Below the pieces are notes generated by a model. That model made no database searches. It had not been told where the DNA came from and saw only the letters and a list, made by a program, of their open reading frames with translations. A stretch of DNA of 64,000 nt, from assembly GCA_018057705.1 (NCBI GenBank), contig JAGPDF010000007.1:1125-65124 (forward strand). Reading direction: 5' to 3'. The translations under genes were made by a program, and so were the position numbers. Within the stretch, counting starts at the first letter, position 1. Each line of letters begins with the position of its first letter. Source of the DNA: Thermoanaerobaculia bacterium (GTDB lineage Bacteria > Acidobacteriota > Thermoanaerobaculia > Multivoradales > JAGPDF01). Of the stretch, positions 4,682 to 53,880 are shown piece after piece.

Positions 4682-4691
4682 GAGGAAGGAG

Positions 4692-7701: not shown

Positions 7702-7788
7702 GCGGAGAGATCAGCGTAACATGCGGCTGGCAGCCACCTGCTGGTCTGCCCAATCGGCCTCGGAACTCTCCCCGGGAGGACGGACTTC

Positions 7789-8160
7789 ATGCCTCATTGC
7801 ATCCTCGAATACTCCGGCAACGCGCTCGACGAGCCCGATTGGGCAGCGACTCTGACGGCCCTTCACGAGGTGCTGGCGGCGACGGGCCTTTTCGTCCTCG
7901 ACGACATCAAGAGCCGGGTCGTAAGACACGACGACTTCCGGGTGGGGGAGGGTCGAGGCGATCGCGCTTTCGTGGCGCTGGAGATCCAGATTCTCTCCGG
8001 CCGGCCGGACGAGGTGAAGGGGGGGATCTGCGATGCCGCGCTGCAGGTGCTCGTCCGCGCCTTTCCCCGAACGGTGGAGCGCCTGACCACCAGCGTCACG
8101 GTGCAGATCAGCGACATCCATCGACCGAGCTATCGCCGCGAGATCCGCTCCCGGGGCTGA
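7789..8160 (+). CDS. 5-carboxymethyl-2-hydroxymuconate isomerase family protein (CHMI).
   Basis: Characteristic N-terminus MPHCILEYS; ~120 aa; GGGAGGA RBS 8 nt upstream. Confidence 0.7.
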   Translation: MPHCILEYSGNALDEPDWAATLTALHEVLAATGLFVLDDIKSRVVRHDDFRVGEGRGDRAFVALEIQILSGRPDEVKGGICDAALQVLVRAFPRTVERLTTSVTVQISDIHRPSYRREIRSRG

Positions 8161-8216
8161 CTGCGCCACTCGACCGCCACCGGCCAGCCCGCCCGCCGCC
8201 TGAAGAACGCGCTGGA

Positions 8217-9290
8217 TCAGCGGGTCGTGCTGCCGAGCTCCTCGGCGAGGAGCGAGCAGCCCCGCAGGTCGGCTTCCGGGGCGCGGCCGGCGAGACGGAA
8301 GCCGGGGCCGGCGAGGGAGCCGAGGTCTTCGGTGAGCAGGTGCAGCGCCGAGCCGACGTTGGCGAGGTCGAAGAAGGCGAGGAGACCGGTCGCACCGGGC
8401 GGGAGCTCGCGGAGGGTGACTGGATCGAGGACGCGGACCTTCATCCAGTGCGGCGGAACGAAGATTCCCGGGTCGCCGCCGGTGAGCGTGGCGGTGTAGC
8501 ACTGGCTGGTGAGCTCGGTCATGCCGTACTCGCCGACGATCGACTCCGGCGCGATGAACAGCTGCTCTTCGAGCTGGCGGTGGAGCTCTTCGCGTGCGAG
8601 CTCGCGCGCCCGGCCCTTGAAGCCGCCGGTCTCGAAGACCGCCGAGCCCGAAGGCAGGCGAAACCTGAGACCGATACGGCCGAGGAAGTCGAGGAGGTCG
8701 GCGAGCGCGAACGACGTCGTGAGAATCAGCACCGGCCGCCCCTCGCGCTGGCGGGCGCCGAACCAGGAGCGCGTCTTCGCCCCCTCGACGCCGCGCTCAC
8801 CGAAGGCCGAATCGCTCCCGGGTCCGCCGAAGCGCTGCAGCAGGTGGTCGACCATGAAGCCCAAGCTCGAGTCGGGCGCGACAGCGCGCGGCGGCACGAG
8901 TGCGAGCATCGCCGGAAGGTCCTGGGGCCGATCGCCGCGCGGCAGGCAGAAGCGCGGGAAGGACGCATCGATCGCGGCGCGGTAGAGCTCGGGGAAGGGG
9001 TGGGTGTGCACGCTCCGCGTCTCGCCCAGCGTGCCGCTCGAGCGAAACGTCTCCTGCGGCGGATCGGTGGCGAGCTCGACGGTCGCGAACGCCGTCGCGG
9101 GAATCATCGGCACGTCGCGCCACGAGGCCACCGTCGCCGGCGTCCGGCCGGCGCGTTCGCACATCGCGCGATAGGCGGGAAGGCGGTCGAACTGGTAGGC
9201 GAAGCCGTCCAGCGCCAGGCCTTCGAAGTCGGCCGCGGACGAAGCGTGCGGGGGCAGGCGAAGAAGACTGGAGATCCGTTCGACGATCAC
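8217..9290 (-). CDS. Acyl-protein synthetase (LuxE-like) / adenylate-forming enzyme family protein.
   Basis: GTG start; sequence resembles LuxE/PaaK-like acyl-adenylate ligases (…ESIVGEYGMTELTSQCY…GATGLLAFFDLANVGS…). Confidence 0.55.
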   Translation of the reverse strand: MIVERISSLLRLPPHASSAADFEGLALDGFAYQFDRLPAYRAMCERAGRTPATVASWRDVPMIPATAFATVELATDPPQETFRSSGTLGETRSVHTHPFPELYRAAIDASFPRFCLPRGDRPQDLPAMLALVPPRAVAPDSSLGFMVDHLLQRFGGPGSDSAFGERGVEGAKTRSWFGARQREGRPVLILTTSFALADLLDFLGRIGLRFRLPSGSAVFETGGFKGRARELAREELHRQLEEQLFIAPESIVGEYGMTELTSQCYTATLTGGDPGIFVPPHWMKVRVLDPVTLRELPPGATGLLAFFDLANVGSALHLLTEDLGSLAGPGFRLAGRAPEADLRGCSLLAEELGSTTR

Positions 9291-9447
9291 CGGAGGATTC
9301 TCTCACGGCGCCCCGGCCCGGAGCTTCCTGCAGAGCGCGCCGATGCGAGCCGTGGGGAGCCACACGGCGAGAGCGGGAAAGCCGGCGGCGCCGGCGCGAT
9401 GCCGACGCCGCCGAACTGGAGAGCCGGGCTCCCGGCCCCGCCCCGTC

Positions 9448-10749
9448 TCAGGGGAAGGTCTGACTCCAGGCGGTGCTGTCGCCCGTGCCGAAGCCGTCCA
9501 CGAAGATCAGGTTCGTGTTGGTGAGGAACTCGACCTCGCCGGGCGTGCCGGCCTCGAAGAGCCCCAGGACATGGGTTTCGATCTCGGCCGGCGGCCGGTC
9601 GGCGTCGAACCAGAAGTTGTACATGTTGGCCCAGCGGATCGCATTGGCGTTCTCCGCCGGAGAGAACGCGGGCGAATCCCAGCTCACTTCGTCGACGGTG
9701 ACGGTGTTCCCCCAGTCAGCCGTGTCGTAGGGCTCGTTCGAGTGCGCGTTGACATCGTGGAAGCCGATGTTCTCGAAGGTCGTGGCCCCGAAGAAGCGGA
9801 TTGCCAGCCGATCCGCCGCGCGGGCGGAGTTCATGTTGTGGACGGCATACTCGTAGTGCCAGACACCGGCCGAAGGGTTGGTGACCTTGCGGGCGACATG
9901 GAAGCGCTCGACCGGCACCGACGGGACGTCGACGTTGAGCAGTTCCACCGTCGCATCGATCACCGGCCAGACTTCGATCGCCGACTTCTGACGCACCGTG
10001 CTGCCGACATTCTGCAGGTTGAAGCTGACGGCCTCGACGGAGACCTCACGGTACGAGGCGTTGTTGAGGCCGTTGCCGGACTGGGCGTCGTCGGGGGCGA
10101 TGTACTGACCCTCGATGAAATAGCGCGCCCCCGGGTTGAGCGCAGCGTCGAGGTCGGCCTCGGCGACGGCGGCGCGCTGGTTCCAGATCGTAGCCGTGCT
10201 GCCGCCGCCGCCCTCTGGGAAGGGGAAGACTCCGGTCGTCGGGTTGACTTCGGACTTCCGTCCCATCGGGCGGCCGCCGTTGAGGCTCGACGAGTAGGGG
10301 TCGGTGCAACCGACGCCCAGCTGATTGCCGCCCAGCGGTGGAGCGGCGCAACTGCCGTCGCCGCAGCCGCCGGCGCTCTGGTTGAGCGAAATGAAGCCGT
10401 GCTTCAGCCAGCTGGCGCCGATCTGGTCGAAGCGTCCGTTCTTCAGCCGGTAGATGTTCTGACCGATCACCGGGTGATCGGAGCTGGTGGTCCCGCTGCC
10501 GCAACCGCCATTGACGTCGCACCAGTTGAGCGGCGTGTCGCCGATGTTGCAGGAGGTCGTGCCTACCGAATAGCCGCGGATGCCTCCGGACGCGCCCCAG
10601 TTGGTCGTTCCAGGCAGTTCGTAGACGGTGACGTCCGCCCCGGTGGAGCCGGCCGCTGCGGCTTCGACCCCGAGGAGGGCCAACGTGCAAACCGCGAAGA
10701 GCGCAAGAGTGGTACGAACAGGCAGGTTGCGAACGATTCGATTGTGCAT
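9448..10749 (-). CDS. Secreted protein of unknown function (433 aa), Cys/Gly-rich N-terminal region, ending in the conserved C-terminal tail ...IFVDGFGTGDSTAWSQTFP.
   Basis: Signal peptide MHNRIVRNLPVRTTLALFAVCTLALLGVEAAAAG; GGAGAC RBS; no family recognised. Confidence 0.7.
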   Translation of the reverse strand: MHNRIVRNLPVRTTLALFAVCTLALLGVEAAAAGSTGADVTVYELPGTTNWGASGGIRGYSVGTTSCNIGDTPLNWCDVNGGCGSGTTSSDHPVIGQNIYRLKNGRFDQIGASWLKHGFISLNQSAGGCGDGSCAAPPLGGNQLGVGCTDPYSSSLNGGRPMGRKSEVNPTTGVFPFPEGGGGSTATIWNQRAAVAEADLDAALNPGARYFIEGQYIAPDDAQSGNGLNNASYREVSVEAVSFNLQNVGSTVRQKSAIEVWPVIDATVELLNVDVPSVPVERFHVARKVTNPSAGVWHYEYAVHNMNSARAADRLAIRFFGATTFENIGFHDVNAHSNEPYDTADWGNTVTVDEVSWDSPAFSPAENANAIRWANMYNFWFDADRPPAEIETHVLGLFEAGTPGEVEFLTNTNLIFVDGFGTGDSTAWSQTFP

Positions 10750-10946
10750 CGGAGTCTCCGTACGTCGGCGAAGGGGTGGAGAGAGGACTCGGGACCGGGA
10801 AGAAGATGACGAGTGACGTAGCCCTTGCGGGATCTTCGCCCTCGGATTGACAATCGATACCCTGATTGACGCGGGAGTCTAGTACACCTCGGGAGAAATT
10901 CAATCCCCGATCCGGCGCGCGGCCGGAAGATCTCTACCGGCAGCTC

Positions 10947-13784
<2,838 letters not shown>

Positions 13785-13788
<4 letters not shown>

Positions 13789-14756
13789 GCTGGCGGGTGC
13801 TCAAGTTCGGTGGCACCTCGGTCGGCTCGCCCGAGGCCCTGCAGGCGGCGTGCGGGATCGTGCGCCGCGCGGCGGCGGAGACGCGCGTGCTCGTCGTGGT
13901 CTCGGCGCTCGCCGGCGTCACTTCGGGAATCGCGCGTCAGCTCGAGACGGCGCTGGCGCGTGACCCCTCCTGGCGCGACCCGTTTCGCGCCCTGCGCGCG
14001 CGCCATCGCGAGCAGCTTCAGGCGGTGGCACGCGGCCGGCCGGCGGTGGCGGCGGCCGATGCGCTCGATCGCGGACTCGAGCGCCTGCGCGATCTGCTGC
14101 GGGCGGTGGAGCTCCTGGGCGAGGCGACCCCGCGCACCCGCGCCCGGGTGATGGCGGCAGGGGAGCGACTCTCGGCGCCGATCTTCGCGGCGGCGCTGGC
14201 GGCGGATGGCGAGGCCGCGGCGCCGCTCGACGGAACCGAGGCGCTGGTCGCGAGGGGTCCGTACGACGAGGCCTTCCCTGACGTCGGCGCCAGCCGGCCG
14301 AAGCTGGCGGCGCGCCTGGCGACTTTGGGAGATGTCCTGCCGGTCGTGACCGGGTTTTTCGGCGCCGACGCGGCGGGCGACGTGCGGCTCTTCGGGCGCG
14401 GTGGCTCCGACACCTCGGCGACGGCGATCGGGGCGGCGATCGGCGCGGCCAGAGTCGAGATCTGGACCGACGTCGACGGCGTCGCGACCGCCGATCCGCG
14501 GCGCGATCCGGCGGCCGAGCTCCTGCCGCGGCTCTCCTACGACGAAGCCTTTCGCCTCGCCCGAGATGGAGCCAAGGTGCTGCACTGGAAGGCGGTGGCG
14601 CCGGCCCGCGCCGCCGAAGTCCCGATCGTCGTCCGCAACACCTTCCGTCCCGAAGCGGCTGGCACCTGGATCGGCCCCGATGCGGCTGGCACCTCGTCCG
14701 GCACAACGATCGGAGGGCTCGGGAGAACGGGGGGTGAATCCGCTCTGCTATGCTGA
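13785..14756 (+). CDS. Aspartate kinase, catalytic domain only (323 aa; no C-terminal ACT regulatory domains).
   Basis: GTG start overlapping the metX stop; KFGGTSVGS...VVVSALAGVT...RGGSDTSATAIGAAIGAARVEIWTDVDGVATADPR match the LysC/aspartokinase catalytic core; the protein ends ~35 aa after the kinase domain. Confidence 0.7.
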
Positions 14757-40550: not shown

Positions 40551-41456
40551 GTGGAAGCTCGCCTTCCTGCCCTACTGCCGGCGGAGGACTCGCGCCCCGC
40601 GCACGTTCATCGTGCCATGCGCGCTGCCGTTCTCTCGCCAGGCAAGCGTGTCCGCCCCATGCTGACCCTGGCGGTCGCCGAGATGCTCGGCGGCGCCTCC
40701 GACGACGCACTCGACCTGGCCTGCGCGGTGGAGCTCGTGCACTGCTGCTCCCTCGTGCTCGACGACCTGCCCGCGATGGACGACGCCCACCTCCGGCGCG
40801 GTCGGCCGACGCTGCATCGCGAGCACGGCGAAGACGTCGCGCTGCTCGCCGCGTTCGCCTTGCTCAACCGCGGCTATGCGCTCGTCGCCGAGTCTTCGCA
40901 GCGGCTCCATCTGTCGCGCTACAGCCCGGAAGAGCTCCTGCACCACCTCGCCCAGGCGATCGGCACCGACGGGCTCATCGGTGGTCAGGCGATGGACCTG
41001 GCGAACGGCGGCGCCCCTCCGACGCTCGCCGACCTCGAGTACATCCACAGCCACAAGACGGGCGCCCTCTTTCTCGCCGCGGCGGAGCTCGGCGCGATGG
41101 CGGTCGACGCGCGGCGGCGGGATCTGGCGGCGATCGGTGCTTTCGCGAAGAACCTCGGGCTCGCCTTCCAGATCGAGGACGATCTCCTCGACGTCCTCGC
41201 GACGAGCGCGGAGACCGGCAAGGACGAGGGTCAGGATGCCTCGAAGGTGACCTTCGTGAAGCTGCTCGGCGTCGCTGGGGCGCGCTCTCTCGCCGACGAG
41301 CTGCTCGCGTTCGCCCTCGCGTCGGTAGCGCCGTTCGGACGCAAGGCCGAGGTGCTGTGCAGACTGGTCGAGTTCGTGGCCGGCTACGGCAACCTGGGGA
41401 GTCGGCAGGTGACGTTGACGGGTGCGGGCGGAGGGGGCCGGACGGGCGATGAGTGA
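40551..41456 (+). CDS. Polyprenyl diphosphate synthase (FPP/GGPP synthase family).
   Basis: First and second Asp-rich motifs LVLDDLPAMDD and FQIEDDLLD; GTG start; 8-nt overlap with the downstream gene. Confidence 0.8.
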   Translation: MEARLPALLPAEDSRPAHVHRAMRAAVLSPGKRVRPMLTLAVAEMLGGASDDALDLACAVELVHCCSLVLDDLPAMDDAHLRRGRPTLHREHGEDVALLAAFALLNRGYALVAESSQRLHLSRYSPEELLHHLAQAIGTDGLIGGQAMDLANGGAPPTLADLEYIHSHKTGALFLAAAELGAMAVDARRRDLAAIGAFAKNLGLAFQIEDDLLDVLATSAETGKDEGQDASKVTFVKLLGVAGARSLADELLAFALASVAPFGRKAEVLCRLVEFVAGYGNLGSRQVTLTGAGGGGRTGDE

Positions 41457-43287
41457 TCCGCGCGAGCTCGAGATCGCGCGGCGCGAGCTGCAGCGGCTCG
41501 GCTACCTGTCGCACCGCGTGGAGCGCTTCCTCTTGCGCGATGCCCTCGCTCCCGTGGGCGATCCGCGCGCGCTGGCGCACCTGGCGTGGAAGGTCGGACT
41601 ACTCGCCGGTATGCTTCTGGCGCTCGCCAACACCCTGGCCCTGGCGGCGGCCAACGGGCTCTTCGCCGCTGCGCCAGCCGATCTCCTGCCGCTGTTCCTT
41701 CACCTCCTGCCGCCGCTGGTCATCGCATCCGCCGCCGGATTCGTCGCCGTCGTCGCCGGCTTCCTCTTCGCGCTCAAGCTCTTCCCGCGGCGCAGTCTCG
41801 AATGGCTGATTCTCGGCGTGACGTTCGTCGCCACCGCGCTGCTCTTCGGCTGGGCCGTCCTGCGGGCCTGGGATCTCCTGCTCGGGTTGCCGCGCTGGCA
41901 GCGCGTCGTCGCCGGCATCGCCCTGCCGCTGGTCGCGGCGGCGGTGGCGAAGCTCCTGGCGAACGGGCTGCTCTCGATCGCCATCCGCATGACCCGCATG
42001 ACGCCGAGAGAGCGCCTGGTCTCGCGCCGCACCATCCTCGCCGTGACCGGCTCGATCCTGGCAATCGTCGCCACGGTCGCCTTCGTCGTGCCGCAGCGGG
42101 CTCCGGCCGCAGCGCCCGCCTCCCTGCCGAAGGCGGCCGGCGAGCGTGTCCTGTTGGTGGGGCTCGACGGCATTCTCGCCGAGGAGTTCGACTATCTGGT
42201 GGCGCGGGGCGCTCTGCCGGCCATCTCGGGACTGATGCGCGACGGGGCGGTCGTGGCGAGCTACGCGCGCGCCGCGGAGCTCGAACCGGCGGAGTTCTGG
42301 ACGACCGTGGCGACGGGCGTCGGCGGCGAGCTCCATGGGGTGCGATCGCTGGACAGTTTCCGGCCGACCGGACTAGAGACGGCTCTCGCGCGGAGCGGGC
42401 CCTGGCGATTCTGGTGGTCCGGGGTGGCCGTGCCGCTGGGCCTTGCCGAGCATCGACCGCTGCTCGCCAACCGCCGGGCAGCTTTTACCTTCTGGGAGCT
42501 CTCGGCGCGCGGCGGAGCGCCGGCCGCGGCGGTCGACTGGTGGGCGACCTTCCCGCCCGAGCCGCTCGCCGGGCTGGTGGTCGCGCACGGCGCTTTCCAG
42601 CTTCTGCTGGATGGGCACCTGAGTGCCGTGGCGCCGGCCGATCGCGCGCCGGATCTCGCCCGGTTGGCCCGGGCGACCGAGCCCGGGCCTTCGGGCTCGA
42701 CCCTGGAGGCAGCGCTGCCGGCCAAGCTCGCCGAAGAGCTGCTCCGGCGCGCGGTTCTCCCCGATCGCTTCTACCGCGAGGTCGCGCGCCGCGAGGCCGC
42801 TGACCGACCCGAGGCCATGGCGCTCTACCTTCCGGCCATCGATCTGCTCGCCGAGGGCTGGATCGGAGGGGACGTTGCCCTGGCCGACCTGGTGCGCGCC
42901 GAGCTCGAAGAGGCCGACCGCCTGATCGGCGGGCTGATGGAGGGCGTCGGCACCCTTGTGGTCGTGCTCGATCCCGGCCGCAGGAAAGGCGGCATGGGGA
43001 GGATGGGCAGGGTGGGGCGGGTTCTCTTCGCTCATCCGGCGCCGGATCCGCGCGCGATCTGCCGGGGTGGAGCCGATCTGCAGGTGGCTCCCGAGGCGGT
43101 CGCTGCCGCCCTGATCCGCGCCCTGGGCCTGCCGCAGAGTGCGGAGCTTCCCGAACCGCCCGGCTTTTGCTCCTGGCCGGAGCCGCCGGCGCGGGTCTCC
43201 GGCTTCGGCGAACGCTCGCCGGGCGGGGAACGACCCGGTGACAGCCGGGACTATCTCGAAAACCTGCGCTCGCTGGGATACCTCTAG
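41448..43287 (+). CDS. Polytopic membrane protein with a C-terminal alkaline-phosphatase-superfamily (type I phosphodiesterase/nucleotide pyrophosphatase-like) domain.
   Basis: Six hydrophobic segments in the first ~200 aa; RVLLVGLDG...LP...PAEFWTTVATGVGGELHGV matches the Phosphodiest/AlkP core; translationally coupled to the polyprenyl synthase. Confidence 0.6.
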
Positions 43288-43385: not shown

Positions 43386-43943
43386 TCAGTTCGACCAGCT
43401 GTCGGTCGTGCCGCCTTCGAAACTGTCGGCGAACAGCGGCTCGGCCGGGCGTTGCACGGTGCTCATACGGTCGGCGGCTGCGACACCGGCAGACCCGGCG
43501 GGAAGCGGCGCCGTCCGGCCGAGATCCAGTCGCAAGCCGACACTGGCGGCGATCAGCAGCATCGCTGCCGCGGCGAAACCCAGCCAGCGGCGACTGGAGA
43601 ACGCGGCGAGCGCGGCGGACGCCGCCGGGGCGACCCGGCGCTCGGCGGGCACGACCTTCAACCGGTCGCGCAAGGCCACCAATTCGTCGAATTCACGCTG
43701 CAGCAGCGGATCGCCGGCGAGCCGGCTGGAGAAAAGCTCCGCTTCGACAGGGTCGAGTGTACCGTCCACCGCCGCCTCGAGCTGCTCGTACTCCGGCGAT
43801 TCCTCGTCGCGTTCGCCGCGCACCAGCAGGCCCTCGAACGCGACGGCCAGGTCGGCCTCGGCGCGAAGCGTCTCGTCCACCGGGGTCACCGGGCTGGACG
43901 GGAGGGCGGGAGTGGGCAGGAGTCGCAGGTTCGGACGGTTCAT
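43386..43943 (-). CDS. Anti-sigma factor (single TM) whose extracytoplasmic tail ends in the conserved C-terminal tag ...LFADSFEGGTTDSWSN.
   Basis: N-terminal anti-sigma-like helix (EYEQLEAAVDGTLDPVEAELFSSRLAGDPLLQREFDEL); TM WLGFAAAAMLLIAASVGL; sits 63 nt downstream of the ECF-like sigma gene. Confidence 0.55.
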   Translation of the reverse strand: MNRPNLRLLPTPALPSSPVTPVDETLRAEADLAVAFEGLLVRGERDEESPEYEQLEAAVDGTLDPVEAELFSSRLAGDPLLQREFDELVALRDRLKVVPAERRVAPAASAALAAFSSRRWLGFAAAAMLLIAASVGLRLDLGRTAPLPAGSAGVAAADRMSTVQRPAEPLFADSFEGGTTDSWSN

Positions 43944-44006
43944 ATCGGCTCTCGTGAACGGAGATGCGGAAAAAGACTCCCGGTTACCGGCCTGGTGGAA
44001 TCTCTC

Positions 44007-45125
44007 TCAGCCCTCCCATTCCGAGGCGCCTTCCGAAGGACGCGGACGCAGCCGCCGGGCGAGCCGCGCGCGGGCGCTCTTCCTCAGGTTGATGACCTGC
44101 CGGGCGGTGAGGTCGAAGCGCTGGGCGATGGTCCGGTCGTCGAGCGGCAGCTCATCCCAGAGCTCCCGGAGCTCCGGCTCGGGCAGGTCGAGGAGTCGGG
44201 CGAGGTCCGCGCGGGAGGCAAGTCCCGTGAGCGTCAGGAGGGTCAGCCGGTCCCGCCCCTGCTCGTCCCGCAGATTGAGCAGCAGGGCCCGCCGCTGTCC
44301 CAGGGGCAGCTCGCGGACCTCGCTCCAGAGGGCCGCCAGGAACTGGCGCCCTTCGAGCTCCCGGTGAGCCCCGGCGCGCGTTTCGGGCAAATCGAGGCCA
44401 GGCTGCGGATCGGCGCCCTCGGTGCCCGCGCTCGCCGCGCTCTCGCCAGAGAGGGAGAGCGGCGGGCGGTCCTGCACATCGAGCAGGTCGGCGGCAGCTT
44501 TCTGCAGATCGCGGAAGCCCCAGGGTCCTCCGCGCCAGAGCAGCAGGCGCCGCACGAGCTCCGGCAGCGGCAGCGCGCGGGCCGGGCCCGAGAGCGCCAG
44601 GTCGCGCGCCTGGGGAGCGTCGGACTTCGCGCCGGCTCGGGCCGTCCCCTCGGAGGTGGCTCCGGAGGCCGCAGCGCCGCCGGACGAGCCGTCTCGCCAG
44701 GCGGCGAAGCCGCAGAGGAGCGCTCCATCCCTGCCTTCCCAGAGCGCCAGCTCCTCGTCGTGGCGCAGGAGGTAGCGCAGCTGGTTCTGCAACCGGGTGC
44801 GTTCCGGGTGGCGGGCGCGCAGCCAGGCCCGGCAACCGTTGGCGCCCGTCGCCGCGACATAGGCGCGAAAGCTCTCGATCTCGACTTCCGGATCTCCCGA
44901 CAACCACTGCTGGAGCCGCTCTGTCAGCCGAAGAAGGGCGGCGGCATGGACCTCCTCCTGATCGGCCGCCGGCACGCCGCCCAGCTGGCTTCGGATCGTT
45001 CGCCAGAGCAGCGGCGCGGCCTCGCCGAGCAGCAGCCGGCCCAGAGCCTCGCTGGCGGCTGCCGGCCCACGTTCGGCCGCCGACCGCAGCGTGGCGAGCA
45101 GGGGATCGATGGCGAGCGCCTTCAC
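44007..45125 (-). CDS. Divergent ECF-like sigma-70 family factor (372 aa) with an extended linker/insert between regions 2 and 4.
   Basis: GTG start overlapping the MFS stop (GTGA). The region-2-like segment is EEVHAAALLRLTERLQQW...FRAYVAATGANGCRAWLRARHPER. The region-4.2 HTH is RTIAQRFDLTARQVINLRKSARARLARRL. The remainder of the 812-aa ORF is artefact. Confidence 0.55.
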   Translation of the reverse strand: MKALAIDPLLATLRSAAERGPAAASEALGRLLLGEAAPLLWRTIRSQLGGVPAADQEEVHAAALLRLTERLQQWLSGDPEVEIESFRAYVAATGANGCRAWLRARHPERTRLQNQLRYLLRHDEELALWEGRDGALLCGFAAWRDGSSGGAAASGATSEGTARAGAKSDAPQARDLALSGPARALPLPELVRRLLLWRGGPWGFRDLQKAAADLLDVQDRPPLSLSGESAASAGTEGADPQPGLDLPETRAGAHRELEGRQFLAALWSEVRELPLGQRRALLLNLRDEQGRDRLTLLTLTGLASRADLARLLDLPEPELRELWDELPLDDRTIAQRFDLTARQVINLRKSARARLARRLRPRPSEGASEWEG

Positions 45126-46387
45126 CCTGGCACTGCCGGCCCGCCGGCCGCGAAGAGCAACACCGTCGCGGCGCACGCGGCGAGGGCGGCGCCGGCGAGA
45201 AAGGCCGCTGAAGGCCCGAAGAGCTGCCAGACGACTCCAAACCAGAGACTGGCGAGGAACGTTCCGACGCCTGCGGCGAGGTGGAACGCGCCGAGTGCAC
45301 TGCCGGCGCCCGGTGGGCTGGCTCCGGCGGCGCCGGGGCCAGCTGAGCCACCCGCACCGGCGAGCTCGACCACCAGCGCCCGTTCGGCGCCTTCGGTGAG
45401 ACCGTAGAAGGCGGCATAGAGCGCGAGCAGGGCGGCGAGCGCCGCGGGCTGTGCCGTGACCGCGAAGCCCGTGTAGGCGATGGCGTACAAGGTCCAGCCG
45501 AGCAGGATGGCGGGCCGGCGGCCGATACGGTCGGCGAGTTTGCCGCCGGGAGCCGAAGCGAGCCACTTCACGACATGGAATGCCGACCAGAGGAGAGTGA
45601 GGCCGACCGCTCCGATGCCGATTTCGGCGGCCCGCAGCAGGAGAAAGGCGTCGCTCGCATTGCCCAGCGCGAAACAGAAGAAAGCGGCCAGAGCCCCGCG
45701 CAGTGGCCCGGGGAGAGGCTCGGACCGCGCCCCGAGCGAAGGGGCGGCGCCCCGGCCGCCGACCGCCGGCGGGGAGCGCCGGGTGGTCTCGCGCGGCAGG
45801 CCGAAAGCGACAGTCAGGAAGCCGGCGAGGGCCGGGAGCGTCGCGACCAGGAAAACCGTCCGCAAGGCGCCGGGCGAGAAGAGCAGGAGGACCGCCGCGA
45901 GGAGGGGGCCGCAGGCGGCGCCCAGGTGGTCGAGGCCGCGGTGATAGGAGAAGGCATAGGCGCGCTCGCCGGGTGCGACCGCCTCGGCGATCAGGGCGTC
46001 GCGCGGCGCCGTGCGCAGGCCCTTGGCGAGCCGGTCCCAGAGCCGCAACGAAATGACCTGGGCGGCGGTGGTGGCGAGCGCGAGCAGGGGTCGCGCCAGC
46101 GCCGACGCGCCGTAGCCGGCGACGACGAAGGGCTTGCGCCGCCCGAGTCGATCGCTCGCCCGGCCGGCCCAACCCTTGACCAGCGCCAGGACGCCCTCGG
46201 CGGCTGACTCCATCGCGCCGAGCACTGCCGCGCCGCCTCCCAGCGCCGCCAGGAAGCCCGGGAGCAGGGGGTACACCATCTCGCTCGCGACGTCCTGGAA
46301 GAACGAACCGGCTCCGAGCCGTCGCACGGTCGGCGGCAGGTCTCGCCCGCGATAGGCGCGCAGGAGGGCCGGGGAGGAGGGGCTCAC
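45122..46387 (-). CDS. MFS transporter.
   Basis: 12-TM profile, G(R/K)xxDRxGRR motif (GRASDRLGRRKP); GTG start overlapping the upstream SBP stop. Confidence 0.7.
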   Translation of the reverse strand: MSPSSPALLRAYRGRDLPPTVRRLGAGSFFQDVASEMVYPLLPGFLAALGGGAAVLGAMESAAEGVLALVKGWAGRASDRLGRRKPFVVAGYGASALARPLLALATTAAQVISLRLWDRLAKGLRTAPRDALIAEAVAPGERAYAFSYHRGLDHLGAACGPLLAAVLLLFSPGALRTVFLVATLPALAGFLTVAFGLPRETTRRSPPAVGGRGAAPSLGARSEPLPGPLRGALAAFFCFALGNASDAFLLLRAAEIGIGAVGLTLLWSAFHVVKWLASAPGGKLADRIGRRPAILLGWTLYAIAYTGFAVTAQPAALAALLALYAAFYGLTEGAERALVVELAGAGGSAGPGAAGASPPGAGSALGAFHLAAGVGTFLASLWFGVVWQLFGPSAAFLAGAALAACAATVLLFAAGGPAVPG

Positions 46388-47985
46388 GGCGGGTCGATTC
46401 TCTCCCGCTCGGTGCCTTCGCGCTCGCCTCTTTCGCGGTCGGCATTTTCCCGCCCCGCCCAGTACATCGTGCGCAGGCTGTGGAGTTCGCCGCTCGGATA
46501 GTGGCGATAGCCCACGAGGCCGGCCGGGTGGACGGCGACGTTGACCTTCGTGAACAGTGAGAGATAGGGCAAGTCGTGCGCCACGATCTGCTGCGCTTCG
46601 ACGTAGAGCGGCCGACGCGCAGCGCGGTCGGGGAGGCGCGCGCCCTGCTCGACGAGCTCGTCGAAGCGCGGATTGGAGTAGCGCCCGCGGTTGGACCCGG
46701 CCGGCGGTACGCGCTGCGAGTGCAGAATGAGCATGTAGATGTCGGGGTCGGCGATCCCCGTCCACGTCAGGCTGAAGAGCTGGAAGTTGCCGCGCTTGAT
46801 GTCGGCGTAGAACGTCGCGAACTCGTAGGAGCGGATTTCGACATCGACGCCGATCTCGCGCCACATCGACTGGAGGATCTGTGCCTGCAGGACGGCGGTT
46901 TCGTCGGTCGACGTCTTGTAGGTGAGGCGCAGGCGCGGCTCCGGCCCGCTCCCGTCCGGGTCGGGGAAGCCGGCCTCGTCGAGCTGGGCGCGGGCCGCCG
47001 CCGGGTCGAAGGGCGTCGCGGGGAGATCGTCGTTCCTCGCCCAGTTCCCGGGTGGGAGGAGGGTCTCGGTGACGACGCCGAGGCCTCGCCAGAGCGTGCG
47101 CACCAGCTTCTCCCGGTCGAGCGCCAGGGCGAGGGCGCGCCGCACGCGGCGATCGGCGAGCAGCGGATCGGTCAGGTTCAGGCCGAGGTAGACGTAGTTC
47201 GCGCCGCTCGCGGCCGGCACGCTGAAGCGCGGGTCGGCGCGAAAGAGCGGCACGACGTCGGGCGGCAGGGCGTTCACCACCAGCTGAACGCTGCCTTTGC
47301 GCAGCTCGAGCACGCGCACCGTGGCCTCCGGGATCTCGCGCAGCACGACGCGGTCGAGCCGCGGCCGGCCGCGGTAGTGGGCGTCGAACGCCGCGAGCTC
47401 GATGGTGTCGGCGGTGCGCGAGACGAAGCGGAACGGGCCGGTGCCGACCGGCTGCCGGTTCATCGCTTCGGGCGTCGAGCCCGACGGTACGATACCCAGA
47501 TACGAAGTGAGGTTCGGCAGCAGAGCTCCGAACGGCTCCGAGAGCACGAAGTCGACGGTGGTCGCGTCGATCGCGACGACCCGCTGCAGGAAGGCGAAGG
47601 CGCCGCGCTTCGAGCTGGCGACCGTGCCGTCGAGCAGGGTCTCGAAGGTCCACGCGACATCCTCGGCCCCGAAGGTCGAACCGTCGTGGAAGAGAATGCC
47701 GGGGCGCAGGTGAAAGCGCCAGCGCGCTCCGAGATCGAGCACTTCCCACGACTCCGCGAGATCGGGCAGGAAGTCGCCGCTCTCGTCCTTCGTCACCAGC
47801 CCGTCGAGGATGAGCTCGAAGACGCGGCTCGAGGCCTGGTCGGTCGCGACCCGTGGATCGAGATGGATCGGTGCGCTTTCGAGCGCGACGGTGAGGGAGT
47901 TGTCTGCCGGCGGGCGGGGGGGCGGTGCCGGGCCGCAGGCCGCGACGAGAAGCGCCAGCGGGAGGAGGCCGGCCCTCAGTACCAT
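46384..47985 (-). CDS. ABC-transporter family-5 substrate-binding lipoprotein (OppA/DppA-like).
   Basis: Lipobox LLVAACG; SBP_bac_5-like sequence throughout. No cognate permease or ATPase genes adjacent; an MFS gene follows instead. Confidence 0.75.
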   Translation of the reverse strand: MVLRAGLLPLALLVAACGPAPPPRPPADNSLTVALESAPIHLDPRVATDQASSRVFELILDGLVTKDESGDFLPDLAESWEVLDLGARWRFHLRPGILFHDGSTFGAEDVAWTFETLLDGTVASSKRGAFAFLQRVVAIDATTVDFVLSEPFGALLPNLTSYLGIVPSGSTPEAMNRQPVGTGPFRFVSRTADTIELAAFDAHYRGRPRLDRVVLREIPEATVRVLELRKGSVQLVVNALPPDVVPLFRADPRFSVPAASGANYVYLGLNLTDPLLADRRVRRALALALDREKLVRTLWRGLGVVTETLLPPGNWARNDDLPATPFDPAAARAQLDEAGFPDPDGSGPEPRLRLTYKTSTDETAVLQAQILQSMWREIGVDVEIRSYEFATFYADIKRGNFQLFSLTWTGIADPDIYMLILHSQRVPPAGSNRGRYSNPRFDELVEQGARLPDRAARRPLYVEAQQIVAHDLPYLSLFTKVNVAVHPAGLVGYRHYPSGELHSLRTMYWAGRENADRERGEREGTERERIDPP

Positions 47986-49136
47986 TCGAGCAGCGAGATG
48001 CCGAGTCCGATCCGGGTCGAGCTCTGGTTGTAGTCGATCAGGCTCTCGGCATAGCCGTGGAAGATCTGCAGGTAGCCCTTGAGGTCGCGATGGATCGGAA
48101 AGACCCAGCCGAGCTCGACGGCGCCGTGCGAGCTCGCGCCACCGCGCAGCGAGTGGCGGGCCATGAGGCTGATCTCGTGCTCGCGCAGGCGGCGCACGAG
48201 CAGGAGGTCGCCCCGGCCGGCATAGTCCTCGAGATCGGGGTTGTCTTCGCCGCCCGCGACCTCGGGAAGCCGCCACCAGGGCCGGGCGACGAGCGTCCAG
48301 GCGTCGCGCTCGAAGCCGATCATGCCGATGACGCGGTTCCAGCTCCGGGAGTAGGGCAGATCCGTGCCGTTCGACTGGTGGTTGAGGGAAACGCCGAGAA
48401 GGCGCCCGTCGAGTCCGAGAAGCTCGTAGCTCGTGTGGAAGACGAGCATCAACTCCGGCTCGTAGTTGGTCTCGCGGAAGGGGCGCGACAACTCACTGTT
48501 GTAGACCTGCCATCGGGACGACTGCGTGTAGCCGAACCAGAGATCGCCCCGGTGGCCGAAGAGCTCCTGGGCGATCTTGGTCTTGAAGCTGATCTGGAAC
48601 TTCGCCTCCACCTCGTCCAGATTCTCGGACTCGGTCACCGAGTGACCGGGCTCCGGGCTCGAGGGGAACTGATTGGGAGAATCGGTGTAGAAGGCCGGCA
48701 GGAGATAGACCGGCTTGAAGGCGCGCATCCCGAATGTGCCGAGCTTGGCGTTCCGGGTGAGCTCCCAACGGCTGTCGAGGAGTGAGCTCGCGACCGGCGG
48801 GCCCGCCTCTGCGAGTCCGCCGGCGACGGCCGGCCGCGCCATCATCTCGGCCGGCGGCGGCGGTCCGACGAAGGGCTCGCGCTGCGGCGTCGTCGGCGAA
48901 GACTCGGGAGCGGAGTCCGGGGAGGTCGCCTGCGGCGCCTCCTCGATGCCGCCGGGCCGCCTGTGGCGGCCGACGGCGCGGTCATAGCAGGCCAGCCGCT
49001 CGAAGTCCGAATCGATGCCGACGCAGCCCTCGGGGGAGATCGTCTCCACCTGGGCGAGCGCGGAAGTGGCGGCAAGCGGGGCGAGGCTGTGGATGAGGAC
49101 GAGAGCCAGGCCCCGCAGGGCCTTTGGTAAGATCAT
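47976..49136 (-). CDS. pldA: Outer-membrane phospholipase A (OMPLA).
   Basis: Signal peptide MILPKALRGLALVLIHSLAPLAATSALA; FKPVYLLP, YNSELSRPFRETNYEPEL, and an HQSNG catalytic His/Ser region. Confidence 0.8.
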   Translation of the reverse strand: MILPKALRGLALVLIHSLAPLAATSALAQVETISPEGCVGIDSDFERLACYDRAVGRHRRPGGIEEAPQATSPDSAPESSPTTPQREPFVGPPPPAEMMARPAVAGGLAEAGPPVASSLLDSRWELTRNAKLGTFGMRAFKPVYLLPAFYTDSPNQFPSSPEPGHSVTESENLDEVEAKFQISFKTKIAQELFGHRGDLWFGYTQSSRWQVYNSELSRPFRETNYEPELMLVFHTSYELLGLDGRLLGVSLNHQSNGTDLPYSRSWNRVIGMIGFERDAWTLVARPWWRLPEVAGGEDNPDLEDYAGRGDLLLVRRLREHEISLMARHSLRGGASSHGAVELGWVFPIHRDLKGYLQIFHGYAESLIDYNQSSTRIGLGISLLEWY

Positions 49137-49227
49137 CGGATTCGCGCTCACCGGGCGCCTTGATGCTAGCACTGCGATGTTCGGCCGCCGGCCTCGAACG
49201 GTGGCGATTTCCAAAGGAGCTTCCGAA

Positions 49228-51414
49228 GTGACTCGATTCCGCTCGCGCCGCGCGCTGCAGGCTGCTGCCGCCCTCCCGCTCCTCCTGACACTCGGTGTCT
49301 CGATGCTCCGGGCCCTCCCTGCCGACAGTGCCGGCGGCCCGCGGGCGGTCGTGCTCGGATTCGACGGCGCCGACGCCAAGCTCACCGAACAGTGGATGAA
49401 CGAAGGGAAGCTCCCCAACCTCGCGCGCCTGCGTGAACAGGGGACCTTCTCGCCGCTGCGCTCGACGATCCCCTCGCAGACGCCGGTCTCCTGGTCCACC
49501 TTTTCGACGGGTCTGAATCCCGGCCGGACGTCGATCTTCGATTTCCTGAAGCGCGACACCACGACCTACCGCCCGAGTTTCGCGGCGTTCGACGAGTCGT
49601 CGAAGCCGTTCCTGTTCGGCGCCAGCAACGGCCCGGCGGTCGGCGCTCTGGCGGCGGCCGCGATCTTCCTCGTCCTGCTGCTGCTCCTCAAGCTGTTTCG
49701 CGTCCGCCTGAAAGCCGCAGCTCTCGTCGCGGCGCTGTTCGCGGTCGCCGCTGGCGCCGGCGGATTCTGGGTGGGCAGCACGCTCCTGCCCGAGAAGGTT
49801 CCGTCGGTCATCAACCGGCGCCAGGGAGATCCGTTCTGGAAGGTCCTGGGCGACGCCGGCAAGCACGTGCGCGTGATGCGCATGCCGGTGACCTTTCCGC
49901 CGGAGCCGTTCCCGCACGGCGAGATGCTCTCCGGCCTCGGCACGCCCGACCTTTCGGGCCGGATCGGGAAGCCCTTTTACTTCACCTCCGAGCTTTTCTT
50001 TCAGCCGCGCGGCGGCAACGAGGTGTCGATCGAGATCGTCGAGCTCGAGGACAACAAGGGGACGCTCGCGACCGAGATCAAGGGCCCGCCGAACAAGCTC
50101 TTCCCCAAGCAGTCGGACTACATCCGGATTCCGATGACGATCGATGTCGCGGCCGACAAGTCGAAGGTCGACATCGCGGTATCGAACGCCCGGCTCGCGC
50201 TCAAGCCGGGAGAGTGGAGTCCGTGGGTGCGCTTCGTCTTTCCCTTCAACTCGCTGATCAAGGTCTCCGGGATCGGTCGCTTCCGGGTGCTTGCGATCGA
50301 GCCCGAAGTGCGGATCTACCTCTCGCCGATCCAGTTCGACCCCTCCGACCTGCCGGCGATCTTCGACGTCACGGCGCCGCGCGCTTTCGCGGGCGAGCTC
50401 GCGTCGCGCTTCGGGCTGTTCAAGACGATCGGCTGGATGATCGACACCTGGTCGATCAAGGGCGGCACCATCGACGACAAGGTCTTCCACGAGGATACGG
50501 ATTTCACCGTCGTCGAGGAGGAGAAGATCCTCGCCGGGCTGCTCGAGGACGATTGGGACGTCTACTTCCACTACTTCGAGTTCACCGACCGGGTGCAGCA
50601 CGTCATGTGGCACCACACCGATCCGCAGCATCCGCTCTACACGGCGGAGGGCAATGCGAGGTACGGTGATTCGATCCTCAAGTCCTACCAGCAGATGGAC
50701 CGAATCGTGGGCAAAGTGATGGAGAAGGTCGCGACGATGCCGGCCGGGACGACGCTTCTCATCGCTTCGGACCACGGTTTCGCCCCCTGGCGACGGACGA
50801 TGAACTACAACACCTGGCTCGCCACCGAGGGCTATCTCGTGCTCAAGGGCTCGACCGGCCAGCAGGCGAATCTCGAGGATCTGTTCGACCAGGGCCAGTT
50901 CTTCCAGGACGTCGACTGGTCGAAGACGCGCGCCTATGCCATGGGGCTCGGCAACGTCTACATCAACCTGAAGGGCCGGGAAGGCCAAGGCATCGTCAAT
51001 CCGGGTGCCGAGTACGAGGCGCTCACCGCCGAGATCCGCGCCAAGCTCCCACAGTACGTCGACCCGCAGAACGGCGAGCATCCGGTGGCCTACGTCTTCA
51101 CCCGCGACGAGGCCTACGGCACCTACGACCCGGCGCTCATTCCGGACCTCTTCCCGTCGAACGCCTCGGGCTACCGGGTCGGCTGGCAGGACTCCCTCGG
51201 CATCGTCGCCAAGTCGATCGTCGAGCCGAATCTCGACGTCTGGAGCGCCGATCACTGCTCGGTCTACCCGCCGCTGGTGGACGGCATCCTGTTCGCGAAC
51301 CGCAAGCTCGACCTGTCGCAGAAGCCGTACATGGCCGACATCATGCCGACCCTGCTCGCGATCTACGACGTGCCGCCAACAGTGGAGCTCGACGGCAGGA
51401 GTCTCGTCCCCTGA
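49228..51414 (+). CDS. Membrane-anchored alkaline-phosphatase-superfamily (type I phosphodiesterase/nucleotide pyrophosphatase-like) protein with two TM helices inserted inside the catalytic domain.
   Basis: AVVLGFDGADAK...TPVSWSTFSTGLNPGRTSIFDF core; internal hydrophobic pair AAAIFLVLLLLLKLF...AALVAALFAVAAG. Start chosen at the GTG at 49228 after AAAGGAG; the ATG at 49177 is the alternative. Confidence 0.65.
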   Translation: MTRFRSRRALQAAAALPLLLTLGVSMLRALPADSAGGPRAVVLGFDGADAKLTEQWMNEGKLPNLARLREQGTFSPLRSTIPSQTPVSWSTFSTGLNPGRTSIFDFLKRDTTTYRPSFAAFDESSKPFLFGASNGPAVGALAAAAIFLVLLLLLKLFRVRLKAAALVAALFAVAAGAGGFWVGSTLLPEKVPSVINRRQGDPFWKVLGDAGKHVRVMRMPVTFPPEPFPHGEMLSGLGTPDLSGRIGKPFYFTSELFFQPRGGNEVSIEIVELEDNKGTLATEIKGPPNKLFPKQSDYIRIPMTIDVAADKSKVDIAVSNARLALKPGEWSPWVRFVFPFNSLIKVSGIGRFRVLAIEPEVRIYLSPIQFDPSDLPAIFDVTAPRAFAGELASRFGLFKTIGWMIDTWSIKGGTIDDKVFHEDTDFTVVEEEKILAGLLEDDWDVYFHYFEFTDRVQHVMWHHTDPQHPLYTAEGNARYGDSILKSYQQMDRIVGKVMEKVATMPAGTTLLIASDHGFAPWRRTMNYNTWLATEGYLVLKGSTGQQANLEDLFDQGQFFQDVDWSKTRAYAMGLGNVYINLKGREGQGIVNPGAEYEALTAEIRAKLPQYVDPQNGEHPVAYVFTRDEAYGTYDPALIPDLFPSNASGYRVGWQDSLGIVAKSIVEPNLDVWSADHCSVYPPLVDGILFANRKLDLSQKPYMADIMPTLLAIYDVPPTVELDGRSLVP

Positions 51415-52635: not shown

Positions 52636-53880
52636 ATGTCCCCGATGAATCGTTCCGTTCCGCCCTCGCCCTCCGACCCGCCGGCTCGCGATCCGAACCG
52701 TTCGCGGCGGCGCTTCCTCGCCCTTTCGCTCATCGTGATGCTGCCGCTCGTCGGCGGTGTGCTGTGGAGCGCCGGCGATACCGGCGACAAGGAGCCGGAT
52801 CCCGACTCCCTCTATCGTTATCTCGCGATCTTCTCCGAGACGCTCAATCTGGTGCGCCAGACCTACGTCGAGCCGACCGACATCTCCACCCTCCTGGCCG
52901 GCGCGATGGAGGGTTCGACCGACGCGCTCGATCCCTTCTCGATCTACCTGCCGTCAGCTGTGCCGGCCGCCGGGGAGGGCGACCTCCTGCCCGGAGCCCG
53001 TCATGCAGGCCTCGTGGTCCTGAAGGACCGTGGGGTCGCCTACGTCGCCGGCGTGGAGGAAGGCAGCCCCGCGGTCGCTGCCGGAGTCGAGGGCGGCGAC
53101 ATCCTGTCGCGCATCGGCGGTCGGCCGACGCGGCAGATGCCGGTCTGGGAGATCAACCGCGAGCTCGTTCCCAAAGACGGCCGCGACCTCGAGCTCGAAG
53201 TCGTGCGGCGCGGCGAGACCAAGACGCTCCAGCTGAAGCTCGCGGAGTCCGTCCCGCCGGCGCCCTCGCTCGCTCCGGTCCAGGGGTATCCGCTGCTGCG
53301 GATTCCGCGCATCGACGGCGCTGCTGTCGATGCGGTGCGGGCTCTGCTTCAGCGGGCCAGCGCCGAAGGCACGACGAAGCTCATGCTCGACCTGCGCGGC
53401 ATCTCGGGCGGCGAACCGGAAGCCGCCTACGCGCTCGCCGGACTCCTCGCGGAGGGCGAGCTGGGAACGCTGCGCGTCAAGGAGAAGGTCGGCCGGAGCT
53501 TCACCGGAACCGCCGCTGCGGGCTGGGCGGGCGAGGTGATCCTGCTCGTCGACGGCTACTCGTCGGGTGCTGCCGAGATTCTCGCCGCCGTCCTGCAGCA
53601 GAAAAAGGGCGCCAAGCTGGTCGGCGTGCCGACTTTCGGCTGGGCCGGCGAACGCTCGCGGATCGAGCTCGAAGGCGGAGCGCGCCTGTATCTGACCACC
53701 GCCTTCTTTGCCGGACCGGATGGCAAGCCGCTCTCGGAGCGTCTGACGCCCGACCTGCTGGTCGACGACATCATCCGCCGATTCGAGGAGCGCGAGCGGC
53801 CGCTCTCGGAACTGATCCTCGAGCGCGCGATCCGCTATCTGAACGGTGAGCCGGAGCTTGTCGAGAAGAAAGCCGCCTAA
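52636..53880 (+). CDS. ctpA: Carboxyl-terminal processing protease (S41, CtpA/Prc family) with a PDZ domain.
   Basis: N-terminal TM/signal; PDZ (GLVVLKDRGVAYVAGVEEGSPAVAAGVEGGDILSRIGG); S41 core (...ILLVDGYSSGAAEILAAVLQ...). Confidence 0.8.
   Translation: MSPMNRSVPPSPSDPPARDPNRSRRRFLALSLIVMLPLVGGVLWSAGDTGDKEPDPDSLYRYLAIFSETLNLVRQTYVEPTDISTLLAGAMEGSTDALDPFSIYLPSAVPAAGEGDLLPGARHAGLVVLKDRGVAYVAGVEEGSPAVAAGVEGGDILSRIGGRPTRQMPVWEINRELVPKDGRDLELEVVRRGETKTLQLKLAESVPPAPSLAPVQGYPLLRIPRIDGAAVDAVRALLQRASAEGTTKLMLDLRGISGGEPEAAYALAGLLAEGELGTLRVKEKVGRSFTGTAAAGWAGEVILLVDGYSSGAAEILAAVLQQKKGAKLVGVPTFGWAGERSRIELEGGARLYLTTAFFAGPDGKPLSERLTPDLLVDDIIRRFEERERPLSELILERAIRYLNGEPELVEKKAA

Follow-up and report, generated by a model that had tools for sequence, protein, structure and literature searches.

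Within the 64,000-nucleotide stretch of a Thermoanaerobaculia contig analysed here (hereafter, the window), whose G+C content is about 70%, five genes form one string on the minus strand (43386-49136). They code for an outer-membrane phospholipase A (pldA), a substrate-binding lipoprotein (SBP), a transporter of the major facilitator superfamily (MFS), a divergent sigma factor and an anti-sigma factor. The main finding concerns the last of these proteins: its extracytoplasmic C-terminus is the same short tail that closes three secreted proteins encoded elsewhere in the window, and this tail recurs at the C-terminus of many unrelated exported proteins (hereafter, the cargo). The tail is maintained in the anti-sigma orthologues, whereas the segment joining it to the membrane varies. 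We tentatively propose, as a possibility and no firmer than that, that a periplasmic factor also handling the cargo binds the tail in trans, and that the anti-sigma factor is a putative tethered pseudo-cargo coupling the release of the sigma factor to the state of that factor.

A tail common to an anti-sigma factor and to secreted proteins

The ending of the anti-sigma factor (LFADSFEGGTTDSWSN) had been noticed in the initial annotation of this DNA, which ascribed the same tail to a pectate lyase, to a propeller protein and to a secreted protein of no recognised family. We checked this with a hidden Markov model (HMM) built on 69 independent C-terminal tails of unrelated metagenome proteins, which was run against the 602 six-frame open reading frames (ORFs) of at least 50 aa in the window; the independence of the 69 tails is good, not perfect, as they came from a search whose four-sequence query included the anti-sigma tail. 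The model retrieved exactly four of the 602 ORFs, that is, the three secreted proteins (genes 474..2003, 4692..6065 and 9448..10749) and the anti-sigma factor (E=2.3e-5), the next best E-value being 1.2, so that the sharing of the tail by the four proteins is confirmed. Their extreme ends differ, being WSN-COOH on the anti-sigma factor and xxVP-COOH on the cargo.

A lack of conservation of the tail in the orthologues had been indicated in that annotation as a result that would speak against a role in the anti-sigma factor; on the contrary, the tail turned out to be conserved. A total of 41 anti-sigma homologues were found, some of which are named RsiW by JGI, and in their alignment F171, D173, S174, F175, E176, G178, T180, W183, S184 and N185 are conserved in at least 90% of the sequences, the tail (FxDSFExGxTxxWSN-COOH) always representing the extreme C-terminus. 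It is also present in 14 out of 14 species-level loci (L001-L014), all of them from Thermoanaerobaculia, that were obtained from a scan of the GTDB species genomes; the most distant ones end in LFSDDFESGDADRWSQH, and the distant orthologues drift towards the cargo consensus (FESGD). The periplasmic linker of 30-50 residues that precedes the tail is, by contrast, variable in both length and sequence among the homologues; in the window protein the periplasmic part counts about 48 residues. Judging from this alignment, purifying selection acts on the tail and not on the linker.

Since the anti-sigma domain must be cytoplasmic and a single transmembrane helix is predicted (with W120, A125-A127 and L130 conserved), the C-terminus of the protein should be periplasmic. 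The tail sits on a flexible tether, which implies that its partner should be periplasmic or associated with the envelope. Moreover, distant members of the same sigma family are paired with zf-HC2 anti-sigma factors of 420-450 aa, which possess large periplasmic domains and no tail; in the Thermoanaerobaculia clade the tail thus stands in for the sensor domain. An anti-sigma factor with a more distant sigma partner (L015, GCA_048500095.1, 7100..7723, plus strand) ends in two degenerate half-motifs (SMADFEDGTTGWATPPVVFDFESGRLPPSSAS), which may represent either an evolutionary intermediate or a decayed tail.

The tail belongs to a widespread family. Out of 1.84 billion cluster representatives (50% identity clusters), 1025 matched a profile built on the four tails of the window at E<=1e-3. 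The general consensus, of about 20 residues, is [LI]FxDGFE[ST]GDTSAWSxxVP-COOH, and that of the strictly C-terminal tails is [PGL][IL]F[ASR]DGFE[ST]G[DN]T[ST][AR]WSxx[VATS]P-COOH. The motif is C-terminal in 94 out of the 145 motif-bearing representatives; 69 end exactly four residues after WS, and proline is the last residue in 76 of the 94 C-terminal tails. The only anti-sigma factor among the 150 tail-profile representatives listed is an orthologue of the window protein (P0002). A metagenome scan with 30 tails yielded at least 352 confirmed matches, and 80 loci were kept for analysis; in these, 93 out of 103 tail HMM matches lie at the very C-terminus, with WSxTVP directly before the stop codon. 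On one contig (Ga0256864_1000021, locus L024, GC 0.71; 2771..14211, plus strand), eight consecutive ORFs each end in this way, and in at least three of them (about 566-618 aa) the tail lies in nearly the same context, LLYFRLWGDGFE.

The proteins bearing the tail are unrelated to each other. Besides the pectate lyase of the window, they include trypsin-like proteases, beta-helix proteins and DUF5122 propellers (according to Pfam), an FG-GAP repeat protein (according to the JGI source name) and a subtilisin-like protein (from the reading of its sequence). Signal-peptide-like N-termini, recognised by a crude heuristic, are more common in the carriers (33 out of 63 vs. 72 out of 317, p=5e-6). None of the NCBIfam models matched the four tails even at E<=10, nor was any Pfam match obtained, and searches of the literature by tail motif strings and by anti-sigma/sorting-signal topic did not retrieve any description of the tail.

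Copies of the motif also occur internally, every 190-300 residues in giant proteins, where they correspond to the first beta-hairpin of CBM_4_9 and PF14099 jelly-rolls (profile positions 1-4 of the former and position 1 of the latter). The C-terminal tails hold only the first 20 residues or so, the protein ending there, in comparison with the about 130-210 residues of a complete jelly-roll. The caveat, raised in the initial annotation, that the tail might be a generic structural element is half true, in that the internal motif is the first hairpin of a jelly-roll. The tail is thus the orphan first hairpin of a jelly-roll domain, which exported proteins carry as a modular appendage at their C-terminus. 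It sometimes occurs in two or three tandem copies. A family of small secreted proteins of about 140-190 aa (P0173, P0174, P0177, P0179, P0194 and P0207) carries two to three tandem C-terminal tails, the VP of one running into the next unit; this arrangement suggests that the 20-residue unit is an autonomous module.

The secreted protein encoded at 9448..10749 belongs to a family of 1237 homologues, ranging from Thermoanaerobaculia to Lysobacterales, without any Pfam domain and with many invariant Cys, His and Trp residues. A full tail is present in 57 out of 120 members and a half tail (LFxDGFE-COOH) in 54, one or the other being found in 111 of the 120. In the AlphaFold2 (AF2) model of the window protein, the predicted local distance difference test (pLDDT) score is 87 overall and >90 in the body, while the tail (44-56) is undocked; a Foldseek comparison of this model with the PDB gave no meaningful match (TM <0.3).

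The sigma/anti-sigma pair and its genomic context

The window sigma factor has no Pfam match and lies above no curated threshold, its score against TIGR02937 (E=3.6e-4, 20.2 bits) falling below the cutoff of 42.9. It has 549 homologues, reaching into the Pyrinomonadaceae, and several of them are named sigma-70 or sigma-24 by their sources; among 48 diverse family members, 20 match PF04542 (sigma2; best E=6e-7) and two match PF08281 (sigma4). A weak, low-probability hhalign match to Escherichia coli RpoE places LPlgQRrALLLNLRD on the sigma4 region, and the profile of the orthologues gave no significant sigma match among the PDB sequences, HARE-HTH being the sole match. The AF2 model (pLDDT 86) has a helical C-terminal domain, and its Foldseek matches are almost all sigma factors (sigma32, SigD, sigmaA, FliA and AlgU), with weak E-values (0.04 or higher) and with the sigma2 domain of SigC at TMt 0.71; the best ones are three-domain sigma factors (sigma32, SigD and FliA). 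Taken at their weakest, that is, considering the absence of curated matches to the window protein, the HARE-HTH result and the poor hhalign and Foldseek scores, these data might fit another helical protein binding DNA or RNA polymerase, next to an unrelated membrane protein of 185 aa. This is extremely unlikely, in view of the domain matches and names found in the family and of the composition of the Foldseek list, as well as of the zf-HC2 anti-sigma factors that follow the distant members and of the alignment of the anti-sigma domain with one of them (see below). At the level of the family and of the fold the data are consistent, and it is on these that the identity of the sigma factor rests.

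About 130 residues separate sigma2 from sigma4, and they include strands (126-140) and helices (187-214) that are modelled with confidence by AF2; the helices at 187-198 and 204-214 have pLDDT >90 and fall in the HARE-HTH-like segment (Table 1). The initial annotation had described an extended sigma2-sigma4 linker: a long segment does lie between the two domains, but it is largely a folded insert resembling HARE-HTH. The protein does not, therefore, have the layout of a two-domain extracytoplasmic function (ECF) sigma factor, in which sigma2 and sigma4 are joined by a short unstructured linker and no third domain is present. Given the folded insert, it is better regarded as a divergent three-part protein of the sigma-70 family, ECF-like by context and not a canonical two-domain ECF. 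The insertion of a HARE-HTH-like module of the Gram-positive delta type in a sigma factor is unusual. A second ECF sigma factor, with a SnoaL_2 C-terminal extension (PF04542, PF08281 and PF12680), is encoded at 2093..3196 on the minus strand and adjoins the gene of the tail-bearing pectate lyase, located on the same strand about 90 nt apart.

As to the anti-sigma factor, G43, E56, A58, D60, L63, S73-D78 and R83-F85 are invariant or nearly so in the alignment of the 41 homologues. The core of the domain aligns with YEELAAYLDGRADPVDREILESHLQICQQC of a zf-HC2 anti-sigma factor from another locus (L018), and hhalign between the anti-sigma alignment and this protein gave E=5.8e-4, with a probability of 29%, over the anti-sigma domain. 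The zinc motif is lost: according to the alignment, ESHLQICQQC of the L018 protein corresponds to SSRLAGDPLL in the window protein, with no His or Cys. NCBIfam NF047528 gave E=0.0078, far below its cutoff, and no Pfam family matched at E<=0.01, including RseA_N/RseA_C, FecR and RsgI_N. The N-terminus, MNRxNLRxLP (residues 1-10; 43912..43943, minus strand), is also conserved (M1, R3, L6, R7 and P10 in at least 90% of the sequences) and is followed by a variable segment; this is unusual for an anti-sigma factor, and the N-terminus might represent a sigma-contact or a degradation signal.

Pfam matches and translations showed that the gene calls of the initial annotation, and the tight junctions it reported, are correct; exact or near-exact protein matches, with the NCBI tags KBF21_08730 and KBF21_09115, assign this DNA to an uncultured member of the Thermoanaerobaculia (Acidobacteriota). 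The SBP gene starts with the ATG at 47985, overlapping pldA by 10 nt, and its product has the lipobox LLVAAC; GTGA start/stop overlaps are found at both the SBP/MFS and the MFS/sigma junctions, and the sigma and anti-sigma genes are separated by 63 nt. The intergenic region between pldA and the neighbouring PF01663 gene (49137..49227) is maintained across the loci and embeds a GC-rich inverted repeat (CGCCGC...GGCGGC). This conserved hairpin is followed, upstream of pldA, by an extended -10-like element (TGGTATCCT; CAGTGGTATCCT). The arrangement resembles a promoter of the housekeeping type more than one of the ECF type, and may include an operator or a hairpin.

The window proteins were compared with the 14 species-level loci by tblastn, 12 of these loci having full context. 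The sigma and anti-sigma genes are constant (14 out of 14), the latter being directly downstream of the former, and in all 14 loci the pair is bracketed by two membrane proteins with a PF01663 (phosphodiesterase-like) domain. For the second of these, a 799-aa protein, the mechanical ORF starts at 49015 (plus strand) and overlaps pldA by about 120 nt; the true start is likely the GTG at 49228 (VTRFRSRRALQ...), which is preceded by GGAG and kept in the orthologous loci. The remaining genes of the string are more variable: SBP is missing in six loci (L001, L003, L005, L012, L013 and L014) and MFS in four (L004, L008, L010 and L012), L012 being without all three of pldA, SBP and MFS. Each of the three genes is dispensable across the loci, and pldA-SBP-MFS was rejected as a functional unit with the sigma factor. 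The import of a product by the SBP and the MFS transporter within the same circuit, as initially suggested, likewise finds no comparative support, given the variable presence of the two genes. Upstream of the SBP gene, two related genomes (L011, 20..1704, plus strand, and L006, 705..1859, plus strand) encode a protein that, from the reading of its sequence, seems dockerin-repeat-like; next to it comes a small secreted protein, cohesin-like on the same basis, with a tail variant containing extra cysteines (FADGFESGDRCAWSLSVPPAICP).

A block coding for an M23 protein, a PDZ-containing S41 protease of the CtpA type (52636..53880, 9 kb away) and YibQ is syntenic too, the protease gene being syntenic in seven out of 14 loci (among them L001-L005 and L008). 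The closeness of the flanking genes, CtpA and PF01663 alike, is uninformative, as these related genomes have kept the same gene order throughout the region.

Table 1. Features of the sigma/anti-sigma region and tails of the secreted proteins, with their positions in the window.
Feature	Position	Strand	Remarks
Tail of secreted PelZ-like pectate lyase (gene 474..2003), LWSDGFASGTTSAWSSVQSP	477..536	-	PelZ-like E=1e-27; tail HMM E=1.1e-6
Tail of secreted repeat/propeller protein (gene 4692..6065), LFRDDFETGGTLRWSASAP	6006..6062	+	Tail HMM E=2.5e-10
Tail of secreted protein, unknown family (gene 9448..10749), IFVDGFGTGDSTAWSQTFP	9451..9507	-	Tail HMM E=7.9e-7
Polytopic membrane protein with PF01663 phosphodiesterase-like domain	41422..43287	+	Invariant convergent neighbour of the anti-sigma gene; genomic context only
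Anti-sigma factor, 185 aa	43386..43943	-	Cytoplasmic non-zinc anti-sigma domain, one transmembrane helix, variable periplasmic linker, conserved C-terminal tail
Anti-sigma C-terminal tail LFADSFEGGTTDSWSN, residues 170-185	43389..43436	-	Only conserved extracytoplasmic element
Anti-sigma predicted single transmembrane segment WLGFAAAAMLLIAASVGL, residues 120-137	43533..43586	-	Read from sequence
Anti-sigma domain core, residues ~50-96 (YEQLEAAVDGTLDPVEAELFSSRLAGDPLLQREFDELVALRDRLK)	43656..43796	-	HxxxCxxC zinc ligands replaced
Divergent sigma-70-family sigma factor, 372 aa (sigma2-like N-terminal domain, folded insert, sigma4-like C-terminal domain)	44007..45125	-	
HARE-HTH-like segment in the middle insert of the sigma factor, residues 186-221	44463..44570	-	Profile vs. 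PDB: 2krc_A (RNA polymerase delta subunit, N-terminal domain), E=3e-4
MFS transporter	45122..46387	-	PF07690 E=8e-30; translationally coupled to sigma in this genome
SBP_bac_5 (OppA-like) lipoprotein	46384..47985	-	PF00496 E=6e-87; variable neighbour
pldA, outer-membrane phospholipase A	47976..49136	-	PF02253 E=4e-101; opens the string in this genome; lacking in L012
Second PF01663 membrane protein	49228..51414	+	Invariant divergent neighbour of the operon; genomic context only

Possible roles of the tail

In the mechanism that we tentatively favour, which is the simplest reading, the tail would be a short beta-hairpin serving as a recognition peptide, and a periplasmic factor binding it in trans would also handle the tagged cargo and see the cargo tails in transit. 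In its favour are the restriction of the tail to four ORFs of the window, its conservation in the place of a sensor domain, its modular occurrence on exported proteins and its undocked state in the model of one cargo. The copy on the anti-sigma factor would then act as a membrane-tethered pseudo-cargo, or decoy, and a change in the state of the factor (saturated by cargo tails, idle or absent) would lead to the release or the engagement of the anti-sigma tail; the anti-sigma factor would thereby be opened to regulated proteolysis and the sigma factor freed. A wider version appears doubtful to us, namely that the tail represents a C-terminal signal, not described so far, for the recognition or sorting of Sec-exported proteins in many high-GC Gram-negatives (Thermoanaerobaculia, some Lysobacterales and numerous uncultured lineages) and that the anti-sigma factor, as pseudo-cargo, measures the load or the availability of the machinery recognising it.

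Several data weigh against a reader common to the anti-sigma factor and the cargo. The clustering of the neighbours around the 80 metagenome tail loci retrieved generic families only (recurrently Ser/Thr kinase-TPR proteins, large multi-pass membrane proteins and sulfatase-like proteins), with no partner, protease or secretion component linked to the tail. In the 130 nt upstream of the sigma gene in 11 orthologous loci, compared by eye, no promoter common to the MFS, SBP and intergenic contexts was found. The free C-termini of the anti-sigma factor and of the cargo are not equivalent, given their different last residues, and the low pLDDT over the 20-residue tail of the 9448..10749 model represents weak evidence against docking in cis. 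The maintenance of a full or half tail by this one cargo family across phyla, up to the Lysobacterales, argues for a general, perhaps autonomous, property of the tail rather than for a lineage-specific machine, and the motifs could be alike because the same structural solution is used in each, without any shared receptor.

Two other explanations were considered. The tail might be a minimal module of the RsgI type, with its origin in the opening hairpin of a carbohydrate-binding jelly-roll, and bind a polymer of the envelope or of the substrate, perhaps in a Ca2+-dependent manner through its D/E residues; it would serve to retain or target the secreted proteins, and would let the anti-sigma factor sense the same ligand. 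We regard this explanation as unlikely. The internal copies at the start of CBM_4_9 and PF14099 domains, the pectate lyase among the tagged proteins of the window and the persistence of the tail across phyla in one cargo family, as expected of an autonomous module, are in its favour, as is the fact that the RsgI anti-sigmaI factors of cellulolytic clostridia are polysaccharide sensors (PMC10328401, PMC6852018). Nevertheless, 20 residues (about seven in the half tail) are far short of a folded carbohydrate-binding module (CBM), the protease and propeller carriers have no evident link to carbohydrates, the anti-sigma tail is tethered in the periplasm and not outside the cell, and neither RsgI_N nor any other RsgI feature was found by Pfam. 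On the other hand, the hairpin might be generic and play unrelated roles, with the anti-sigma tail associating with itself or binding a private partner, such as a flanking PF01663 protein, and having no link to the cargo tails. The recurrence of the motif as domain starts, tandem copies and tails agrees with this, together with the presence of the two PF01663 proteins in all the loci and with the fixed variant that the anti-sigma factor has of its own (DSFEGG...WSN-COOH), distinct from the cargo consensus. However, distant orthologues approach that consensus, the extreme C-terminal position is common to anti-sigma and cargo tails, and the synteny of the whole region deprives the flanking genes of their weight; this explanation, too, seems to us improbable.

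The initial annotation had pointed to the CtpA of the window as one possible reader. In such a scenario, the tail would be a degron for a tail-specific protease, the PDZ domain of CtpA or of a Prc homologue reading it and the enzyme carrying out the site-1 cleavage, or trimming, of the anti-sigma factor and processing the cargo tails as well. Proteases of the Prc/Tsp type are involved in the processing of anti-sigma factors during cell-surface signalling in Pseudomonas and in RsiW trimming in Bacillus subtilis, which, with the nearby gene, syntenic in half of the loci, lends this scenario some appeal. A single PDZ specificity is unlikely, though, since the C-termini differ (N-COOH on the anti-sigma factor, VP-COOH on the cargo and GFE-COOH on the half tail), and CtpA lies within a conserved M23-CtpA-YibQ block, of a kind usual for housekeeping functions of the envelope, in a wholly syntenic region where proximity carries no weight. 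We consider a protease degron very unlikely. CtpA was rejected as the specific reader of the tail, no evidence linking the two and the WSN and xxVP ends being different.

If the tethered pseudo-cargo reading is true, a very common and uncatalogued tail of exported proteins would need a function, the candidates being sorting, surface retention, quality control and ligand binding. The anti-sigma factor would offer a handle on it, since the tag is its only outward feature and the release of a sigma factor is easily read; what binds or cleaves the anti-sigma tail would also reveal the handler of the cargo tag.

Comparison with known systems

In the E. coli sigmaE/RseA/RseB/DegS system, as proposed here, a membrane anti-sigma factor is controlled from the periplasm, the C-termini of exported proteins (the YxF of outer membrane proteins, OMPs) are the signal and the sigma factor is freed by regulated proteolysis. 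In E. coli, however, only the cargo carries the motif, its reader being the DegS PDZ domain, whereas in the window it is the anti-sigma factor that bears a cargo-type C-terminus; moreover, Pfam gave no match of the sigma/anti-sigma proteins to the RseA, RseB and DegS families, and an RseA-like periplasmic domain is absent. The likeness to FlgM/sigma28 would lie in an anti-sigma factor bearing the recognition signal of the substrates of a machine, so that sigma activity reports the state of that machine. FlgM, though, is soluble and exported whole by the type III apparatus, while the window protein is fixed to the inner membrane and has its tag in the periplasm.

The class I zinc-binding anti-sigma (ZAS) factors (RsiW/RsrA-like, zf-HC2) share with the window protein the single predicted transmembrane helix, the position of the gene directly downstream of that of the sigma factor and, it would seem, the N-terminal helical anti-sigma domain; here the zinc ligands are lost and the extracytoplasmic domain is reduced to a linker and a tail. 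The CBMs of RsgI factors (CBM3, PA14) match those of the secreted (cellulosomal) enzymes of the same organism. The outer end of the anti-sigma factor is, in both cases, a module type also found on secreted enzymes, which would tie sigma activity to the surroundings where these enzymes work, and the start of CBM_4_9-type domains is akin to the tail; RsgI, however, has complete folded sensors, an autoproteolytic periplasmic domain and RsgI_N, in contrast with a 16-residue hairpin motif on a flexible linker, a class-I-like non-zinc domain and a Gram-negative setting.

As regards sorting tags (PEP-CTERM/exosortase, GlyGly-CTERM/rhombosortase, LPXTG/sortase and the C-terminal domain, CTD, of the type IX secretion system, T9SS), the tail resembles them in being a short conserved C-terminal module, abundant within a genome, on unrelated Sec-exported proteins, and in being found sometimes on runs of adjacent genes (eight in L024). 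Unlike PEP-CTERM, GlyGly-CTERM, MYXO-CTERM and LPXTG, the tails end one to five residues after WS, so that neither a transmembrane helix nor a basic cluster follows, and match no NCBIfam model, and the neighbour clustering at the 80 metagenome loci showed no dedicated processing enzyme; the T9SS CTD is a beta-sandwich of about 70-100 residues, as opposed to a tail of about 20 residues that matches neither Pfam nor NCBIfam. What is new is the minimal sensor of a sigma/anti-sigma pair, and the tail as such is possibly an undescribed tag. If the tethered pseudo-cargo reading is true, this pair would add a new type of input for the regulated inactivation of anti-sigma factors, beside the OMP C-termini read by DegS, the export of FlgM and the carbohydrate-binding modules of RsgI.

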